From Botryllus schlosseri (Eukaryota): DNA of 64,000 bases. A program made the translations under genes and the position numbers. Of this stretch, positions 1,480 through 12,406 are shown piece by piece (position 1 is the stretch's first letter; each line of letters starts with the position of its first letter). The notes under the pieces were generated by a model, which worked only from the letters and a program-made list of their open reading frames with translations, was not told the DNA's origin and ran no database searches. Location: contig CM119372.1 in NCBI GenBank assembly GCA_051294905.1, forward strand, positions 2,296,001 to 2,360,000, written 5' to 3'.

Positions 1480-2260
1480 TTGTCAGCTCCGTGGAGATCT
1501 GCGTGTGGGTTTACAGCCTAAGATGCATATGTAGGGATGCTGCAAAACCCACAAAACGGCTGCTGTAGTACCTCAAACATGCTCTGGAAACTATTGTAAA
1601 ACTGAGGCTGGACAAGCTGTCCAGGTAATGCAGTGTCGCTGCACGATCTTTGAAGTTAACAATTTACCATGAATAACATCAATTCATGTAATCTTAATAC
1701 GTTATATATGTCTTACTATGCTGTGCATTGCGCAAGTGCGCAGGGGCAATAATGTTGCAACCACCAAAGTCATAGTTGAGTGACTTTGGCAACCACTCGC
1801 AATACCACTGTGATTCTATTAGAATTTTTGGCGAAAATCGGTGATCGGGTGAATCATGTAAATATACTCGGGTGTCATTACGTTTTGTGCTTTGGAAATT
1901 ACATAGGCATATTCATGAGCCTCTTGCCATACTATTTCTTGGTCATGTATTCAATGACAAATGCACGTAAACGACTGTTTTCGGGTGTAATTCCAGATAT
2001 AATGACGAAAGAACAATTTTAAGAAGACGAATAAATGCCAACCACACAGCCGTTTGACTGAATATTTTGCAAAGAAATCGTCAGAAATGTATCGATGATA
2101 ACGCTCAACAGACCATGTCTATCGACAATCCTTGGGTATAAATAATTAAATATATTTCGAAGAGTGCGGGAATGGTTTGACACCGGCGGCTGCTACGAAG
2201 AATCATCATTTTCTCGAATATATGATCACGACGAATAGCAGAACACTTTTTTAAAAGATT

Positions 2261-4477
2261 TAGGCTCCGGACTCTACATATATCTCATCAGAATCGAATT
2301 GAAATCGGACATTTTCGAAATTTCGGTAATCCGGACACAATTATGGCCCCAGTTCGACCCTTGGGACGTCGACTTGAATAATAATTTTGGTCTCGATAGA
2401 AGTGGCCAGACTAGTAGAGTTCATTTCAAAACGAATTAGGCTTCGGACTCTACATATATCTCATTAGAATCGAATTGAAATCGGACATTTTCGAAATTTC
2501 GGTAATCCGGACACAATTATGGCCCCAGTTCGACCCTTGGGACGTCGACTTGAATAATAATTTTGGTCTCGATAGAAGCGGCCGGACTAGTAGAATCCAT
2601 TTCAAAAAGAATTAGGCTTCGGACTCTACATATATCTCAATAGAATCGAATTGAAATCGGACATTTTCGAAATTTCGGTAATCCGGACACAATTATGGTC
2701 CCAGTTCGACCCTTGGGACGTCGACTTGAATAATAATTTTGGTCTCGATAGAAGTGGCCAGACTAGTAGAGTTCATTTCAAAACGAATTAGGCTTCGGAC
2801 TCTACATATATCTCATTAGAATCGAATTGAAATCGGACATTTTCGAAATTTCGGTAATCCGGACACAATTATGGCCCCAGTTCGATCCTTAGGACGTCGA
2901 CTTGAATACTAATTTTGGTCTCGATAGAAGCGGCCAGACTGGTAAAATACATTTCAAAAAGAAATAGGCTTCGGACTCTACATATATCTTATTAGAATCG
3001 AATTGAAATCGGACATTTTCGAAATTCTGATAATCCGGACACAATTATGGCCCCAGTTCGACCCTTGGGACGTCGACTTGAATAATCAATTTGGTTTCGA
3101 TAGAAGCGGCCAGACTAGTAGAATCCATTTCAAAAAGAATTAGGCTTCGGACTCTACATATATCTGAATAGAATCGAATTGAAATCGGACATTTTCGAAA
3201 TTTCGGTAATCCGGACACAATTATGGTCCCAGTTCGACCCTTGGGACGTCGACTTGAATAATCAATTTGGTCTCGATGAAAGCGGCCAAACTAGTAGAAT
3301 CCATTTCAAAAAGAATTAGGCTTCGGACTCTACATATATCTCATTAGAATCGAATTGAAATAGGACATTTTCGAAATTCTGATAATCCGGACACAATTAT
3401 GGCCCCAGTTCGATCCTTAGGACGTCGACTTGAATACTAATTTTGGTCTCGATAGAAGCGGCCAGACTGGTAAAATACATTTCAAAAAGAAATAGGCTTC
3501 GGACTCTACATATATCTTATTAGAATCGAATTGAAATCGGACATTTTCAAAATTCTGATAATCCGGACACAATTATGGCCCCCGTTCGACCCTTGAGACG
3601 TCGACTTGAATAACAATTTTGGTTTCGATAGAAGCGGCCAGACTAGTAGAATCCATTTCAAAAAGAATTAGGCTTCGGACTCTACATATATCTGAATAGA
3701 ATCGAATTGAAATCGGACATTTTCGAAATTTCGGTAATCCGGACACAATTATGGTCCCAGTTCGACCCTTGAGACGTCGACTTGAATAACAATTTTGGTT
3801 TCGATAGAAGCGGCCAGACTAGTAGAATCCATTTCAAAAAGAATTAGGCTTCGGACTCTACATATATCTGAATAGAATCGAATTGAAATCGGACATTTTT
3901 AAAATTTCGGTAATTCGGACACAATTATGGCCCCAGTTCGACCCTTGGGACGTCGACTTGAATATTAATTTTGGTCTCGATAGAAGCGGCCAGGCTATTA
4001 GAATCTATTTCAAGGAGAATTAGGCTTTGGACTCTACATATATCTCATTAGAATCGAATTGGAATAGGACATTTTCGAAATTCTGATAATCCGGACACAA
4101 TAATGGCCCCAGTTCGGCCCTTGGGACGTCGACTTGAATAATAATTTTGGTCTCGATAGAAGCGGCATGACTGGTAGAATTCATTTCAAAACGAATTAGG
4201 CTTCGGACTTTACATATATCTCATTAGAATCGAATTGAAATAGGACATTCTCGAAATTCTGATAATCCGGACACAATTATGGCCCCAGTTCGACTCTTGG
4301 GACGTCGACTTGAATAATAATTTTGGTCTCAATAGAAGCGGCCAAACTAGTAGAATCCATTTCAAAAAGAATTAGGCTTCGGACTCTACACATATTTTTC
4401 AATAGAATCGAATTGAAATTGGACATTTTCGAAATTTCGATAATCCGGACACAATTATGGACCCGTTTGATTCTTGG
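2261..4477 (+). repeat. 176-bp tandem satellite array, ~12.6 copies (left arm)
   Basis: Unit starts (tagg) recur at 2261, 2437, 2613, 2789 ... 4021, 4197, 4373. Confidence 0.97.
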
Positions 4478-4711
4478 GTTTGAATTGTATAAGTTATCTA
4501 TGGCTCTACTCTATCCTTTTATTCAACGTATATATGTAAGTACACAGCTGATAAGCCTGAAAGAATGAACAATGCCTTCTCCAATGATACAGACCAATAA
4601 AAGAACACTGTAGCAAGTCCGATTTTGTAACTTTTTTCGCAATGTAGGAATGTACAAGATGATGATAACAAGTACGGGAAAGCACATTCAAAATTGTGGC
4701 TGTTCTATTAA

Positions 4712-5296
4712 TCAAATTATTATCATAGATGAGTAACATCCTAGGAGTTCTTCAGCGTCTTTGTAATTGAGTTTTTTTTTTAACATGGTTAGTTTGATTA
4801 TAATTTCAATCAAAATTACAAGTTCAAAATATGAATGGACTTTGAAATCTGGTTTCAAAAATTTCATAATATCACAGTTTTCTGCAATAACGCCAGGGTT
4901 GATTACTTCAATTGTTAATTCCCCTGGTCGAGAAAGTATTCTGCCGGATGCATTTGAATTATTCGCAAACGTCCTCAGTAAGCAAAGTTTCGACTTGACG
5001 TACTTCCACACCGAGAATACGTCATTGTATTCCCAAATCGAATTTGTAAAGCCATGCATTTTCAACCTGTCATGATTTTTTGATAGCAGAAAAAGCTGGT
5101 GTCGATGAAGGTGTTGCTGCTCTTGATTTGAATTGCTTAGCGAGCTTACGGAAATGCTCCTTATGTGTTCAAATATTTCTTCGATTTGTTCCGCCGACAA
5201 AATTTCCGGGATCGGTGCTTGAAATGTCTTGAAAATCGGTACTCTCTCGTATATAACCGGTGATGAAGATTCCGGCAATTTGCGGCGCTTTCCCAT
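4712..5296 (-). CDS. Orphan 194-aa ORF in the foldback loop
   Basis: ATG-initiated open frame in AT-rich DNA with basic N-terminus MGKRRK; no recognised domain. Confidence 0.4.
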   Translation of the reverse strand: MGKRRKLPESSSPVIYERVPIFKTFQAPIPEILSAEQIEEIFEHIRSISVSSLSNSNQEQQHLHRHQLFLLSKNHDRLKMHGFTNSIWEYNDVFSVWKYVKSKLCLLRTFANNSNASGRILSRPGELTIEVINPGVIAENCDIMKFLKPDFKVHSYFELVILIEIIIKLTMLKKKLNYKDAEELLGCYSSMIII

Positions 5297-5590
5297 AGAA
5301 ATTTTGTCTTGGTGCGTGATTACATCGTCATCCTCGGAGCTCTATTCGATCAGCAGATGCGGTCTTTTAAGATCGTTTCTGAAATAATTAAAACGTTTAC
5401 TGATGTGATATTTAAAAAAATGTATAAATTTCTTGCTCTGTCGTCTAATTATATTGTATCCTATAAGACAGTGAAAATAGAAAAGATTGTAGAGAGCTAC
5501 AGTTACGGAATTAATTGAACTCGCACTTAAACTTTTCTTTTTCGATTAGAATATGCTACATAGTATTCAATAGGGAGGGTGTGAACATAG

Positions 5591-6149
5591 AAGGGTTATA
5601 ACCAAGTCACAATTCAATCTCACTTTTATAGTTTTGACTCGAGTAAAGTCGAGTCATTTTTAATTCACCACCGAGTCAAGTCCGAGTCTAATTCAGCGAG
5701 CAGTGGGTCGAGTACGAGTCGTGGTATTATGACTCGAGTGCGAGTTCAAATCATTGCGTTTACTGCTCACTGCTCAGTTTCGAATTAACGTCTTGATGAA
5801 AACCACTTATTATAACTCTGTTCGGTGATATCGAATAGTTCGCACTAAAGATATACAAATTTCATCACTTTCAACAGTTTCTGGTCGCATTTTCAAGTAC
5901 CAGTACGAATAGGCGAAATACCAACAGTGTGGTCACTTTGCTATTCTTTTAAATAACAATGAAATGTTGGCCTTGACCGTTGGAATTCGATTCATATGAC
6001 TATTGACTTGGTGCGAGTCATGAGCAATGACTCGAGTCCAAGTCGAGTCAATACACAGATTAACTTGACTCGAGTTGAGTCATTTTCGCATTTTGATAAA
6101 AGCCAAGTCGAGTCATCCAAAAATCATGACTCGAGTCATTGCAACCCTG
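5591..6149 (+). mobile_element. hAT-derived MITE (GACTCGAGTC family) nested in the foldback loop
   Basis: Ends AAGGGTTATAACC...GCAACCCTG; TSD gaacatag/gaccatag (7/8 match). Confidence 0.85.
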
Positions 6150-6437
6150 GACCATAGTGTGGTGTTGCCACAGCGCTATTGAACGGCTTACTGCATTTAG
6201 TTTACGACACACTTTCCATTTGTCCAAAGGCAATTCAGTAGCCTCGCCCTACAGGAACTTTTCCGCAAACTAAGAACACCAACTAAATGTCTTCATGCAA
6301 GTAATCAGAGGTGTGCACCTAGCAAGATAGCTGCGGATACCAATTTTCGAGTCTTTGGTGTGACCCGGCCGGGGATCGAACCTACGTCCTACCGATCGAC
6401 AGGCCGGACGGACGTATCACCATTGCACTATCTCTCC
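6150..6437 (-). mobile_element. tRNA-derived SINE (body resembles the Meta-type central domain)
   Basis: Minus strand: A box TAGTGCAATGG, B box GGTTCGATCCC, then GGGTCACACCAAAGACT..AAAATTGGTA; 3' boundary approximate; Meta assignment from memory. Confidence 0.7.
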
Positions 6438-6512
6438 AGCAGAAGTTTAAGTAATATCTTAAATTTCTACCCAATTAGAGGTAGGAATCGATATCCAAGA
6501 ACGTGAGAGGTC

Positions 6513-7257
6513 TTAAAAGCATTCAAGTAAGTAGTTTCAAAAAGTAGATTTGGTCGAGGCGTCATATGATCTTGGTATTCGATCAGAGGTGACAGTTCTC
6601 AAAACTGAAAGATGCATCATCGCAGACAATGCAAAATGATAAATCAGTTGCTCTGAGTTTGAATTGAATTGATGTAACTATCAAAATTCATACCGTCAGC
6701 ACCAGGACTCCACAGTTAAAAGTGTCGGTTTGGGCATCGTGTGGAAAGCATTTTACGGTCCAATCCGCGGAATTCGCGGGCTCGGGCTTGTGATAACTCC
6801 AGTACCCTCTAATTTTCGATAAACCAAGCAATGAAATTACTTCTTCAATTTTACCTTCTCAATAATCTCACCGCCAGTGTTGCAACAAAGTTTTTGCGTA
6901 GACCTCTTCATTGCCAAGGGAATCGTAAACATAAAGAATCTTTGCTTCTATGTCGTTGGCCTCAACAAAAACGCAAAGCGAGGTTTTATGGCTGCTAAAC
7001 AGCATGCAGCCAAAATTATATCAAGAAAATTGATTACCATAAAAATCCAATGATTACCAAGGTCAATAGATGCTACGATTGATTTTTCAAGTGGGTTCTG
7101 CATCTAAACATACTACGCATTACGGCCCATTCCAAATAATGCCATGAGGAATGCGATGATGCGGTACCTTTTTGGTGTGTGACTTTCCGTGGAAAAGACC
7201 CTGGTACCACCATTGTGTCGAAAGCTGACAAGAAACGAAGTTATCGGGTTTCTCATT
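6513..7257 (-). pseudogene. Spliced Ulp1/SENP-like cysteine protease (peptidase C48) gene remnant
   Basis: GT-AG exons 7257(or 7224)-7168, 7103-7038, 6960-6872, 6808-6694 join in frame: ...SIDLGNHWIFM-ANDIEAKILYVYDSLGNEE...FPHDAQTDTFNCGVLVLT (His, Asp, Gln, Cys). Next exon 6604-6513 appears disrupted; no start exon found. Confidence 0.85.
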
Positions 7258-7344
7258 CTAACGCGAATTGAACGGCATTGATATTTCACAATACTTTAAC
7301 ATAATTAGCGAACAATAATAATGTTACCTTTATACACACAAAAA

Positions 7345-7682
7345 TGATAAATTTTTCCCGACTTTGTGGTTGGTTGACTTAAAGAAAGGTCATTTTCCGA
7401 CTTGGCTCTAGAAATTCACGCTTTTGCTGAATTCTTCGTAGATTGACTAAAATAGACAAAAATGTCGACTTTCCAGCTCAGCTCCCGGAATGTCCTCCGG
7501 AACGTTACTCCGGTGCTGATTTACTGTACCTCAGTCGAATTTCACCCTATATATTTAACCATAATTCGCAAACAAATAGGACAAAATCTAAAAAAAACAG
7601 AAATTTGAGCGTCCTCCGGGGACACTTTCAAAATAGTCAAAAAATAGGACAAATCCTCTTTAAAGGAGGTAATGTAACCCTA
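7345..7682. mobile_element. Partial hAT-like MITE (TAGGGTTACC-ended family; related copies 15221-16223, 22660-22940)
   Basis: Shared aggacaaatcc and ggacactttc motifs and terminal gtaacccta; left boundary approximate. Confidence 0.55.
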
Positions 7683-7759
7683 ACATTACTACAGATTACT
7701 TCTGCACAAAAGTTAGCTGTACAATATCAGCTGCTCGTCAACAGAGTGCTGGACGAACA

Positions 7760-10700
7760 GACGCCCCGGGTCAAGCGGGGCCCAATTTGTAATTCGGGTA
7801 CCCAAATTTCGGAAATGCCCAATTTCAATTCCATTCTAATGAGATATATGTAGAGTCCGAAGCCTAATTCTTTTTGAAATGGATTTTAATAGTCTGGCCG
7901 CTTCTATCGAGACCAAAATTATTATTCAAGTCGACGTCCCAAGGGTCGAACTGGGGCCATAATTGTGTCCGGATAATCAGAATTTCGAAAATGTCCGATT
8001 TCAATTCGATTCTATTGAGAGATATGTAGAGTCCGAAGCCTAATTCTTTTTGAAATGGATTCTACTAGTCTGGCCGCTTCTATCGAGACCAAATTAATTA
8101 TTCAAGTCGACGTCCCAAGGGTCGAACTGGGGCCATAATTGTGTCCGGATTATCAGAATTTCGAAAATGTCCTATTTCAATTCGATTCTAATGAGATATA
8201 TGTAGAGTCCGAAGCCTAATTCGTTTTGAAATGAATTCTACTTGTCTGGCCGCTTCTATCGAGACCAAAATTATTATTCAAGTCGACGTCCCAAGGGTCG
8301 AACTGGGGCCATAATTGTGTCCGGATAATCAGAATTTCGAAAATGTCCGATTTCAATTCGATTCTATTGAGAGATATGTAGAGTCCGAAGCCTAATTCTT
8401 TTTGAAATGGATTCTACTAGTCTGGCCGCTTCTATCGAGACCAAATTGATTATTCAAGTCGACGTCCCAAGGGTCGAACTGGGGCCATAATTGTGTCCGG
8501 AATACCGAAATTTCGAAAATGTCCGATTTCAATTCGATTCTAATGAGATATATGTAAAGTCCGAAGCCTAATTCGTTTTGAAATGAATTTTACTAGTCTG
8601 GCCGCTTCTATCGAGACCAAAATTAGTATTCAAGTCGACGTCCCAAGGGTCGAACTGGGGCCATAATTGTGTCCGGAATACCGAAATTTCGAAAATGTCC
8701 GATTTCAATTCGATTCTAATGATATATATGTAAAGTCCGAAGCCTAACTCGTTTTGAAATGAATTCTACTAGTCTGGCCGCTTCTATCGAAACCAAATTG
8801 ATTATTCAAGTCGACGTCCCAAGGGTCGAACTGGGGCCATAATTGTGTCCGGAATACCGAAATTTCGAAAATGTCCGATTTCAATTCGATTCTAATGATA
8901 TATATGTAAAGTCCGAAGCCTAACTCGTTTTGAAATGAATTCTACTAGTCTGGCCGCTTCTATCGAAACCAAATTGATTATTCAAGTCGACGTCCCAAGG
9001 GTCGAACTGGGGCCATAATTGTGTCCGGAATACCGAAATTTCGAAAATGTCCGATTTCAATTCGATTCTATTGAGAGATATGTAGAGTCCGAAGCCTAAC
9101 TCGTTTTGAAATGAATTCTACTAGTCTGGCCGCTTCTATCGAAACCAAATTGATTATTCAAGTCGACGTCCCAAGGGTCGAACTGGGGCCATAATTGTGT
9201 CCGGAATACCGAAATTTCGAAAATGTCCGATTTCAATTCGATTCTAATGAGATATATGTAAAGTCCGAAGCCTAATTCGTTTTGAAATGAATTTTACTAG
9301 TCTGGCCGCTTCTATCGAGACCAAAATTATTATTCAAGTCGACGTCCCAAGGGTCAAACTGGGGCCATAATTGTGTCCGGATAATCAGAATTTCGAAAAT
9401 GTCCGATTTCAATTCCATTCTATTGAGATATATGTAGAGTCCGAAGCCTAATTCTTTTTGAAATGGATTCTACTAGTCTGGCCGCTTCTATCGAAACCAA
9501 ATTAATTATTCAAGTCGACGTCCCAAGGGTCGAACTGGGGCCATAATTGTGTCCGGATTATCAGAATTTCGAAAATGTCCTATTTCAATTCGATTCTAAT
9601 GAGATATATGTAGAGTCCGAAGCCTAATTCGTTTTGAAATGAATTCTACTAGTCTGGCCGCTTCTATCGAGACCAAATTAATTATTCAAGTCGACGTCCC
9701 AAGGGTCGAACTGGGGCCATAATTGTGTCCGGATTATCAGAATTTCGAAAATGTCCGATTTCAATTCGATTCTATTGAGAGATATGTAGAGTCCGAAGCC
9801 TAATTCTTTTTGAAATGGATTCTACTAGTCTGGCCGCTTCTATCGAGACCAAATTAATTATTCAAGTCGACGTCCCAAGGGTCGAACTGGGGCCATAATT
9901 GTGTCCGGATTATCAGAATTTCGAAAATGTCCTATTTCAATTCGATTCTAATGAGATATATGTAGAGTCCGAAGCCTAATTCGTTTTGAAATGAATTCTA
10001 CTTGTCTGGCCGCTTCTATCGAGACCAAAATTATTATTCAAGTCGACGTCCCAAGGGTCGAACTGGGGCCATAATTGTGTCCGGATAATCAGAATTTCGA
10101 AAATGTCCGATTTCAATTCGATTCTATTGAGAGATATGTAGAGTCCGAAGCCTAATTCTTTTTGAAATGGATTCTACTAGTCTGGCCGCTTCTATCGAGA
10201 CCAAATTAATTATTCAAGTCGACGTCCCAAGGGTCGAACTGGGGCCATAATTGTGTCCGGATTATCAGAATTTCGAAAATGTCCTATTTCAATTCGATTC
10301 TAATGAGATATATGTAGAGTCCGAAGCCTAATTCGTTTTGAAATGAATTCTACTTGTCTGGCCGCTTCTATCGAGACCAAAATTATTATTCAAGTCGACG
10401 TCCCAAGGGTCGAACTGGGGCCATAATTGTGTCCGGAATACCGAAATTTCGAAAATGTCCGATTTCAATTCGATTCTAATGAGATATATGTAAAGTCCGA
10501 AGCCTAATTCGTTTTGAAATAAATTCTACTTGTCTGGCCGCTTCTATCGAGACCAAAATTATTATTCAAGTCGACGTCCCAAGGGTCGAACTGGGGCCAT
10601 AATTGTGTCCGGAATACCGAAATTTCGAAAATGTCCGATTTCAATTCGATTCTAATAAGATATATGTAAAGTCCGAAGCCTAATTCGCTTTGAAATGAAT

Positions 10701-11225
10701 TCTACTAGTCTGGCCGCTTCTATCGAGACCAAATTTATTATTCAAGTCGACGTCTCAAGGGTCGAACTGGGGCCATAATTGTGTCCGGATTACCGAAATT
10801 TCGAAAATGTCCGATTTCAATTCGATTCTAATGAGATATATGTAAAGTCCGAAGCCTAATTCGTTTTGAAATGAATTCTACTAGTCTGGCCGCTTCTATC
10901 GAGACCAAAATTATTATTCAAGTCGACGTCCCAAGGGTCGAACTGGGGCCATAATTGTGTCTGGATTACCGAAATTTCGAAAATGTCCGATTTCAATTCG
11001 ATTCTAATGAGATATATGTAAAGTCCGAAGCCTAATTCGTTTTGAAATGAATTCTACTAGTCTGGCCGCTTCTATCGAGACCAAAATTATTATTCAAGTC
11101 GACGTCCCAAGGGTCGAACTGGGGCCATAATTGTGTCCGGATTACCGAAATTTCGAAAATGTCCGATTTCAATTCGATTCTGATGAGATATATGTAGAGA
11201 TATGTAGAGATATATGTAGAGCCTA
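7760..11225 (-). repeat. 176-bp tandem satellite array, ~19.6 copies (right arm, inverted relative to left)
   Basis: ccta recurs at 7863, 8039 ... 11031 (176-bp period); sequence is the reverse complement of the left-arm unit. Confidence 0.97.
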
Positions 11226-12406
11226 AATCTTTTAAAAAAGTGTTCTGCTATTCGTCGTGATCATATATTCGAGAAAATGATGATTCTTCGTAGCAGCCGC
11301 CGGGGTCAAACCATTCCCGCACTCTTCCAAATATATTTATACCCAAGGATTGTCGATAGACATGGTCTGTTGAGCGTTATCATCGATACATTTCTGACGA
11401 TTTCTTTGCAAAATATTCAGTCAAACGGCTGTGTAGTAGGCATTTATTCGTCTTCTTAAAATTGTTCTTTCGTCATTATATCTGGAATTACACCCGAAAA
11501 CAGTCGTTTACGTGCATTTGTCATTGAATACATGACCAAGAAATAGTATGGCAAGAGGCTCCTGAATATGCCGATGTAATTTCCAAAGCACAAAACGTAA
11601 TGACACCCGAGTATATTTCCATGATTCACCCGATCACCGATTTTCGCCAAAAATTCTAATAGAATCACAGTGGTCTCGCAATCATCGCAACTGGCAAAGC
11701 GCTTTTTTGTTTACAATATCTTGTGGCGTTTTTCATGGTTCGATGCCGACAACCACTGTGAGCTGTTAGCCCACCCCGGGGATACGAGATAGATTACTTG
11801 GATATGGCGAACAAAACCACTTGCGTTGTAATTACCAAGCAAACAACACCTCTGGATTTGAAGCTCAATTCCGGAACAGGATTGGGATTTGGGAAAATAT
11901 TGCATCCGTTCGTCTCTGCCGATGATATATGGATGAACAGACATTTAATGTGAATTTTGAAGACTTAGCCTAGTCCTGGAAATCAAATAGCACATACATT
12001 TGTACTATCATGAAATGAAGTCTGGTTGTATGTAGCAAGTGCTGGTAGTAGAAATACTTCGCCCCTCCTGCTATTGTTCATTGGAATGAGAGTTACATCA
12101 GAATCCTATCCATCCTAGCTAGACATACCATAACAGATTCATTTCATTCCAATTTCTTTTATCGATTGAAAATACTACATGTAATAAGATTGAAGAACCT
12201 TCTCTACTCACACCGGTTTTGCCTGTTGTTATTCAATCATGAGACATGTCTCTCTGTAAACCCACGAGCGATATGCAGTGCACTAATTAGTCTACCTTGA
12301 AGAGCAATTCCATGATCCTGATACATCGGCTACCAACTTTAGGAAAAAAATGTACGAGAAGCTCTGTATAATGCATGCAATATGAACCTATACTTTGCTC
12401 CATATG

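Follow-up and report, generated by a model that had tools for sequence, protein, structure and literature searches.

The stretch of the Botryllus schlosseri genome analyzed here, which we call the window, comprises 64,000 nucleotides (C2:2296001-2360000) of an assembly of 495 Mb in 219 contigs and has a G+C content of ~38-40%. It contains a foldback element of 9871 bp (1804-11674), and the loop between the inverted arms of this element carries a series of short minus-strand exons with the catalytic pattern of peptidase C48 (Ulp1/SENP-like proteases). A sequence-only reading of the same DNA had placed a separate, hidden protease gene here, carried as cargo by a transposon. Based on the comparison with further copies and relatives of the element in the same genome, we propose with good confidence that these exons once encoded the C-terminal C48 domain of a transposase and are now left over from the decayed gene of a cut-and-paste transposon of the foldback type, probably related to Mutator.

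The exons that hold the catalytic residues, together with the exon preceding them, are separated by introns of 64, 77, and 63 nt, all of them GT..AG, and the codons for His, Asp, Gln, and Cys follow each other in the order found in peptidase C48 (Table 1). With the boundaries originally given to these four exons (7257-7168, 7103-7038, 6960-6872, and 6808-6694), they join into 360 nt that are free of stops and in frame, as had been described. The sizes proposed for the last three, 66, 89, and 115 nt, stand; the first is 57 rather than 90 nt long, since sister copies place its true acceptor at CAG 7227-7225 and assign 33 of the 90 nt to the intron.

Is the spliced peptide a C48 domain? A six-frame scan of the genome with PF02902 gave 43 matches, the window locus not among them, because its exons are too short. 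We used a proxy hidden Markov model (HMM) built from six Pfam-verified C48 domains of the same genome (L001-L005 and L051; here and below, L-numbers denote further loci of this genome). Tested on 515 sequences, namely the spliced peptides and all open frames of at least 80 aa from the window and the fetched loci, the proxy model scored the spliced window peptide of 109 aa at 30.2 bits (E 8.9e-9). The spliced peptides of L047, L034, and L032 reached 61.6, 48.2, and 46.2 bits, and an open frame of L042 reached 31.7 bits. The best scorers other than these and the known C48 open reading frames (ORFs) stayed at or below 12.6 bits, and proved to be read-through ORFs from within this family. In the profile alignment, the HW, YDS, Q, and NCG motifs of the window fall into the catalytic columns of the six verified domains, in agreement with the motif order from which a C48 protease had first been suspected. 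The catalytic Cys codon is kept in six of eight copies, being replaced by Ser in L031 and by Gly in L035. We consider the assignment of the exon peptide to the C48 family, as judged by profile and motifs, well supported. What the window holds is a fragment of the domain, because its N-terminal portion with the WLND region is gone: the first exon is missing, and the second is reduced to 10 nt. Both exons are present in L034, L031, and L032.

The surrounding element shows the hallmarks of a mobile unit. An 8-bp duplication of the target, CTCGCAAT, stands directly outside the inverted termini, which read ACCACTGTGATTC, a terminus shared with L035, L036, and L037. The arms, 2.7 and 3.9 kb long, are dominated by tandem arrays of a 176-bp unit (12.6 copies on the left, 19.3 on the right) that are 93% complementary to each other. 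The C48 stretch recurs at seven other places in the genome with 84-95% DNA identity, and at one with 69%. Arm repeats accompany five of the seven 10-kb stretches around the other C48 copies, and the foldback build, with long inverted arms of tandem subrepeats around a loop, is repeated in L031 and L034-L037; in L032 and L033, no arm repeats were seen within the 10 kb fetched. Because loop and arms recur across the genome, we are dealing with a transposon family and not with a host gene. The locus is thus most likely part of a foldback DNA transposon, a setting that the earlier reading had recognized, and does not have the status of a free-standing hidden gene.

Table 1. Features of the foldback element and of its C48 exons (window positions; a dot marks features without strand).
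Feature	Position	Strand	Remarks
Left target-site duplication, 8 bp (CTCGCAAT)	1796..1803	.	equals 11675-11682
Left terminal non-tandem arm part, terminus ACCACTGTGATTC	1804..2252	+	94% inverted match to 11674-11171
Left arm array, 12.6 x 176 bp	2253..4478	.	92% matches; 93% complementary to right array
209-aa open frame of the loop, 3' of the C48 exons	4712..5341	-	same strand as C48 exons
Last C48 exon (C-terminal tail)	6513..6599	-	acceptor lost; premature TGA 6539-6537; natural stop TAA 6515-6513
C48 exon with oxyanion Gln (6732-6730) and catalytic Cys (6714-6712)	6694..6808	-	
C48 exon with catalytic Asp (6924-6922)	6872..6960	-	
C48 exon with catalytic His (7052-7050)	7038..7103	-	
C48 exon, 57 nt (exon 1 of the earlier reading, shortened)	7168..7224	-	acceptor CAG 7227-7225
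Remnant (final 10 nt) of preceding C48 exon, 36 nt in fuller copies	7328..7337	-	GT donor 7327-7326; deletion breakpoint adjoins
Repeated arm-proximal block in place of transposase ORF and first C48 exons	7339..7776	.	contiguous with arm in L037
Right arm array, 19.3 x 176 bp	7799..11199	.	
Right terminal non-tandem arm part	11200..11674	-	
Right target-site duplication, 8 bp	11675..11682	.	

The fuller copies of the family indicate where the C48 exons belong. In L034 (C1:5525200-5535199), the loop measures 5.9 kb, and a transposase frame of 531 aa adjoins the left arm on its inner side, in the same orientation as the C48 exons. Homologues of this frame were found at 86 scored places in the genome, many of them in open frames of 1000-1884 aa. 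A transposase ORF precedes the C48 exons, on their strand, in L032 and L031 as well, and all three copies contain two additional C48 exons, one of 119 nt that ends in WLND(K), the motif with which C48 domains open, and one of 36 nt. The 119-nt exon starts in phase 1 and therefore needs an exon upstream of it. In each of the three copies that hold the respective part, a phase-1 donor (TCAG or TCTG, followed by GTATTA) is found 23 nt before the stop of the transposase ORF. The simplest reading would be a single gene for a transposase with a C-terminal C48 domain, cut by small introns. L034 also has a 447-bp insertion (3888-4334, contig C1), absent from L031 and L032, in the stretch that separates its transposase frame from the first C48 exon.

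Relatives in the same genome point in the same direction. A sister family (L043-L048) has a transposase core that is 48% identical to that of the window's family; copies of the L047 type hold ORFs of 1041-1054 aa. In L047, the long frame ends with AATGAA|GTAAGT and is followed by seven stop-free exons that, by predicted splicing, continue it in frame for 234 aa. Four intron positions are common to L047 and the window's family: one behind the exon with the WL motif, one behind the exon with HW, a phase-2 position ahead of the exon with Gln and Cys, and one behind the VLK downstream of the Cys. Exon 2 of L047 corresponds to two exons of the window's family, and a Cys-rich exon follows its C48 part. 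Single-ORF fusions exist as well: L051 combines the same transposase with a C48 domain (PF02902, 27.9 bits) and a PHD finger (33.2 bits) in one frame of 1131 aa, and L042 joins the same transposase and a C48 domain (31.7 bits with the proxy profile) in a single frame. When the tables of matches are compared, 7 transposase matches in the genome are followed closely by a PF02902 match on the same strand, and 19 are followed, also on the same strand and at most 4 kb downstream, by a match to the ubiquitin hydrolase domain UCH. Long intact frames with a transposase of this clade and UCH are located, for example, at C2:19337532-19340552 (1884 aa), C14:4973863-4976745 (1678 aa), and C13:12185052-12187991 (1503 aa).

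One may consider the C48 exons as a separate accessory gene with its own start, similar to the second genes of some Mutator elements. The transposase ORF of the window's family indeed has its own stop, and the first C48 exon is ~800 nt away from it in L034, or ~360 nt if the 447-bp insertion is discounted. We nevertheless find this quite unlikely. The first C48 exon is in phase 1, lacks an ATG-led start, and requires one base from an exon upstream; the conserved phase-1 donor is positioned just before the transposase stop; the sister copy L047 is predicted to splice in frame; and L051, L042, and 11 of 44 public homologues hold transposase and C48 in one protein. What had been described as a separate cargo protease gene most likely constitutes the 3' portion of the gene that encodes the transposase.

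Two further observations concern the loop. The 209-aa frame downstream of the C48 exons is conserved as a frame of 267 aa in L034 (7097-7900, plus strand), which has no match in Pfam; it may be a separate gene, the element's second, or contribute additional exons. A 120-bp stretch at window positions 6314-6433, where sister copies have 25-40 bp, looks tRNA-like by eye, and searches of it with ARAGORN and Rfam gave no match.

Could the exons be a fragment of a host SENP gene that was captured in the manner of Pack-MULEs and plays no role in the element? Mutator-like elements (MULEs) are reported to take up host fragments (PMC8277862), and exons separated by introns resemble a host gene. Yet the C48 gene that looks most like a host gene, L001 (PF02902, 166.8 bits), is only 33% identical over 73 aa, well short of the high identity to a parent gene that a captured fragment would show. 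All copies in which this part of the loop survives contain the exons, and the same exons, with the four shared intron positions, occur in a family whose transposase is ~48% identical. A quickly built tree of 22 C48 domains groups the window's family with domains attached to transposases of the same clade, apart from L001 and L002 (SH-aLRT 91); given many long branches, this placement is suggestive only. We regard host capture as highly improbable and retain the view that the exons most likely belong to the transposase gene.

To which superfamily does this transposase belong? A MULE transposase is recognized by its DDE core, in which the second Asp is followed by a CxxH motif. In an alignment of 32 sequences of the transposase core, D73, C119, H122, and E338 are conserved, the first Asp lies in the consensus DATG, and the columns follow the order D..D..CxxH..E. 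An AlphaFold model based on the same alignment (predicted local distance difference test score, 88.1) resembles most closely ISCth4, a transposase of the IS256 family (VIA-align Z 11.8, root-mean-square deviation 4.4 over 214 residues), followed by Hermes (Z 9.5) and the P element (Z 9.1). Foldseek also ranks ISCth4 first (E 0.008). IS256 and MULE are named as one family in a study of root-knot nematode elements (PMC3169594). Among the 30 nearest ESM-Atlas clusters, 20 contain PF10551, the MULE domain, and 1 of 7 members of the family tested with Pfam shows a match to PF21056, a MULE-derived RNaseH-like domain, at E 0.0016, below the cut-off. The 8-bp duplication, seen at one copy, and the long inverted termini fit the elements of this superfamily, for which duplications of 8-11 bp are described (PMC6446971). 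The transposase core profile retrieves 1542 proteins at E up to 0.001 from 1.84 billion representatives. Of 44 long public homologues, 16 contain UCH (PF00443), 11 contain PF02902, 7 contain both, and 7 have a PHD finger (PF00628), with no domain match in 19. A search for homologous proteins with the transposase found none among longer proteins and two among proteins of near length, and a sequence search of the Protein Data Bank with the profile returned weak UCH and Ulp1 tails only, and no transposase. We are moderately confident that the transposase is Mutator-like, a link that had also been drawn when the locus was first read.

Several observations count against our interpretation and should be weighed together. 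As regards the gene, every splice site is a prediction from sequence and conservation, and, for the family of the window copy, the joining of the C48 exons to the transposase ORF hangs on one conserved candidate donor. As regards the protease, the C48 score comes from a proxy profile of six sequences and a test set of 515; the sole direct match to PF02902 in the family is a read-through frame of 77 aa in the sister copy L034, in which the second intron is open (E 0.0034, 17.7 bits, below the gathering cut-off of 20.7 bits); and none of five single-exon peptides matches any Pfam family. In the sister family, intact-looking L047 has Asn at the position of the catalytic Asp, reading LLNPLG for VYDSLG (3523-3611, contig C16), with His, Gln, and Cys kept. 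As regards the Mutator assignment, the target duplication was observed at one copy only; PF10551 matches none of the seven family members (E up to 5) and none of the 44 public homologues (E up to 0.001); the Z-score of ISCth4 leads those of the hAT and P transposases by ~2 units; the Foldseek E-values are above 0.001; and in profile-profile comparison (hhalign), similarity to a classical MULE of this genome did not reach significance (E 0.15 and 0.07), the only aligned stretch (E 0.07) being located on the CxxH motif.

The failure of single exons to match Pfam is what one would also expect if the motif order were spelled out by accident in short open stretches. Chance is a practically negligible explanation, ruled out by conservation: the pattern exceeds it because the same exons and introns recur at seven other places, four intron positions are shared with a diverged family, and the spliced peptide scores with the profile; GT..AG borders at every intron and the aligned catalytic columns are further points against it. 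Similarly, the missing PF10551 match, the 8-bp target duplication, and the closeness of Hermes (Z 9.5) and the P element (Z 9.1) would suit a non-Mutator element of another superfamily with 8-bp duplications, such as hAT, P, or Zisupton/KDZ. Zisupton duplications are given as 8 bp (PMC12730594), and the C48 domain would then be of the kind reported for Zisupton. This we hold to be unlikely, since the top structural match is of the IS256 family, MULE clusters are among the Atlas neighbors, one member weakly matches PF21056, and 8 bp is within the range of MULE duplications. The KDZ domain PF18758 was found in none of the seven members (E up to 5) or 44 homologues (E up to 0.001), whereas animal Zisuptons are reported to match it (PMC9297572); the suggested connection to Zisupton is therefore not upheld. 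On balance, we keep to a C48-bearing transposase gene of probable Mutator descent.

The window copy itself has lost its upstream part. Its homology to the fuller copies ends at 7338, where only 10 nt (7337-7328) of the 36-nt exon remain; the transposase ORF is gone, as are the first 1.7 C48 exons. The adjoining block of 438 bp (7339-7776) is contiguous with the arm in L037 and recurs in full length at at least ten other places with 90-94% identity (40 scored of 3581 first-look candidates), while part of it (~7340-7682) is found elsewhere at 76-82%. A search for inverted repeats in 7320-7720 revealed no terminal inverted repeat. Because the block continues into the arm in L037, recurs elsewhere, and shows no inverted repeat in 7320-7720, the upstream part was deleted and not interrupted, as had been thought, by a miniature inverted-repeat transposable element.

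At its other end, the window copy has lost the acceptor of the last exon. In seven of eight copies, this acceptor reads TTTAG or TTAAG directly before AGAAC and sets the exon in phase 0, and the window has TTTTG, with TG at 6601-6600 where its relatives have AG. The base that the sequence-only reading had restored in order to open this exon is thus unnecessary, and the premature TGA, for which CGA had been assumed, stands in place of CTA (Leu) of the sister copies, eight codons ahead of the family's stop. The conclusion that the copy is decaying was nonetheless correct, given the deletion, the lost acceptor, and the premature stop.

All eight copies examined are disabled. L031 has a stop in the Asp exon and Gln replaced by Arg, in addition to its Cys to Ser change; the first C48 exon of L032 contains an insertion of ~970 bp; L033 has a 1-bp deletion; L033, L034, and L035 each have two lesions, a CAA where the 57-nt exon should have its acceptor and the loss of 4 bp from the last exon; and L036 and L037 are truncated. 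The insert of L032 (~5580-6539, contig C8) has inverted ends starting with TAGGGATGG and a flanking 8-bp repeat, ATTAACAC, and it looks hAT-like. In the intron after the Cys exon (window 6681-6683), L033-L035 are ~290 bp and L032, L036, and L037 ~1040 bp longer than the window and L031, which may reflect an insertion in the other copies or a deletion in the window. The sole near-identical transposase frames are that of L034, whose N-terminus is cut by the arm, a copy on C8 with 95-96% identity in two pieces, and a copy on C3 with 79% identity and six stops. As the identities of exons and introns between copies are nearly equal (for example, 0.897 versus 0.864) and dN/dS ranges from 0.58 to 1.22, the family is, by its substitution pattern, in neutral decay. 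To judge from its lesions, the window copy is a dead, non-autonomous deletion derivative, and it is incapable of the protease and transposase functions considered below.

How does this element relate to known systems? Mutator-type transposases with a C-terminal Ulp1 domain, and with PHD, have been described in hydra, lancelet, Arabidopsis, maize, rice, and melon (Bao, Kapitonov and Jurka 2010, PMC2836005). The family described here shares the combination of a DDE transposase and C48, often with PHD; it differs in that its clade has no PF10551 match, its C48 domain is split by small introns, and UCH (C19) is added in many relatives. Classical Mutator-Ulp1 ORFs also exist in this genome, with PF10551 and PF02902 in L005, L008, and L010 and additional PHD in L005 and L010. 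L005, L006, and L007 (C2:23708780, C13:4960538, and C14:4487910) are identical-scoring frames of 1018 aa, the scanned one, L005, holding MULE, C48, and PHD in one frame; they look like a recently active Mutator-Ulp1 family.

Ginger1 of Hydra and other animals is described as having a C-terminal Ulp1 or OTU protease, sometimes PHD, and 0-4 introns (PMC2836005), and is similar in attaching a protease to the C-terminus of a transposase. According to that description, its transposase is of the Gypsy-integrase type and its inverted repeats are short, whereas in the present family the closest folds are of the IS256/hAT/P type and the arms are foldback arrays. Tm1 of root-knot nematodes, a foldback-like element with a Mutator transposase of the Phantom subclass and duplications of 8-10 bp (PMC3169594), resembles our element, as far as it is described there, in its composite long inverted arms with internal repeats, its mostly decayed non-autonomous copies, and its Mutator-like transposase. 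Tm1/Phantom is portrayed with FLYWCH and MULE domains and no protease, unlike the family studied here, which has no MULE match in Pfam and has PHD and C48 in relatives. Rehavkus, a Mutator relative of insects and annelids, combines a PHD finger with a minisatellite (Dupeyron et al. 2019, PMC6446971), and since the relatives here have PHD fingers and the element has a minisatellite, Rehavkus might be an attractive name for the window element, to judge from that description. Its duplication is 9 bp, in contrast to 8 bp here, and the same description mentions no protease.

Zisupton/KDZ transposons carry a SUMO-protease domain. The 8-bp duplication and a multi-exon transposase gene, reaching up to 1400 aa in Zisuptons (PMC9297572), are points of likeness; the absence of a PF18758 match in every tested member sets the present family apart. 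With host SENP/Ulp1 proteases, the element shares the catalytic domain and the order of its residues, and it differs from them as a multi-copy transposon with truncated and broken genes. A literature search for the combination of transposase, UCH, and C48 in animals found nothing relevant. The window case joins the known transposase-Ulp1 kind, from which it differs by an unrecognized transposase clade, an intron-split protease, foldback arms, and a frequent UCH partner.

Based on these comparisons, we propose the following model. An intact element would have long inverted arms, each consisting of a unique terminus followed by a 176-bp tandem array, and would encode one intron-split protein of the order (PHD finger)-DDE transposase-C48 protease. 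The DDE part would catalyze cut-and-paste transposition of the element, leaving the 8-bp target duplication, while PHD fingers might act as guides to chromatin. By analogy with its family, the C48 part may free some protein, located at the transposition complex or close to it, from SUMO or another ubiquitin-like modifier; we infer this role from the domain family, from the retention of the domain in diverged relatives, and from the neighboring UCH domain in many of them. Our best guess for the target would be the transposase itself, or chromatin or repair proteins at the element.

What follows from a dead copy of such an element? In annotating this genome, one should mask the exons as the remnant of a transposon instead of calling a SENP-like gene. 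The locus also leads to a large transposase clade that is missed by Pfam and of which intact relatives are present in this genome. A role for ubiquitin-like deconjugation in DNA transposition was suggested earlier (Bao et al. 2010, PMC2836005), and the retention of C48, often together with UCH and PHD, over deep divergence strengthens this suggestion. It is conceivable, although we put this forward as a doubtful proposal, that the transposase represents a deep, unnamed IS256/Mutator-like branch outside the Pfam MULE and KDZ models, with at least 1542 public homologues and a recurrent combination of PHD with UCH and/or C48 in one protein. If this is true, stripping proteins of ubiquitin or SUMO would belong to the transposition mechanism itself, or to the way in which these elements escape chromatin silencing, and the proteases would not be cargo picked up on occasion.

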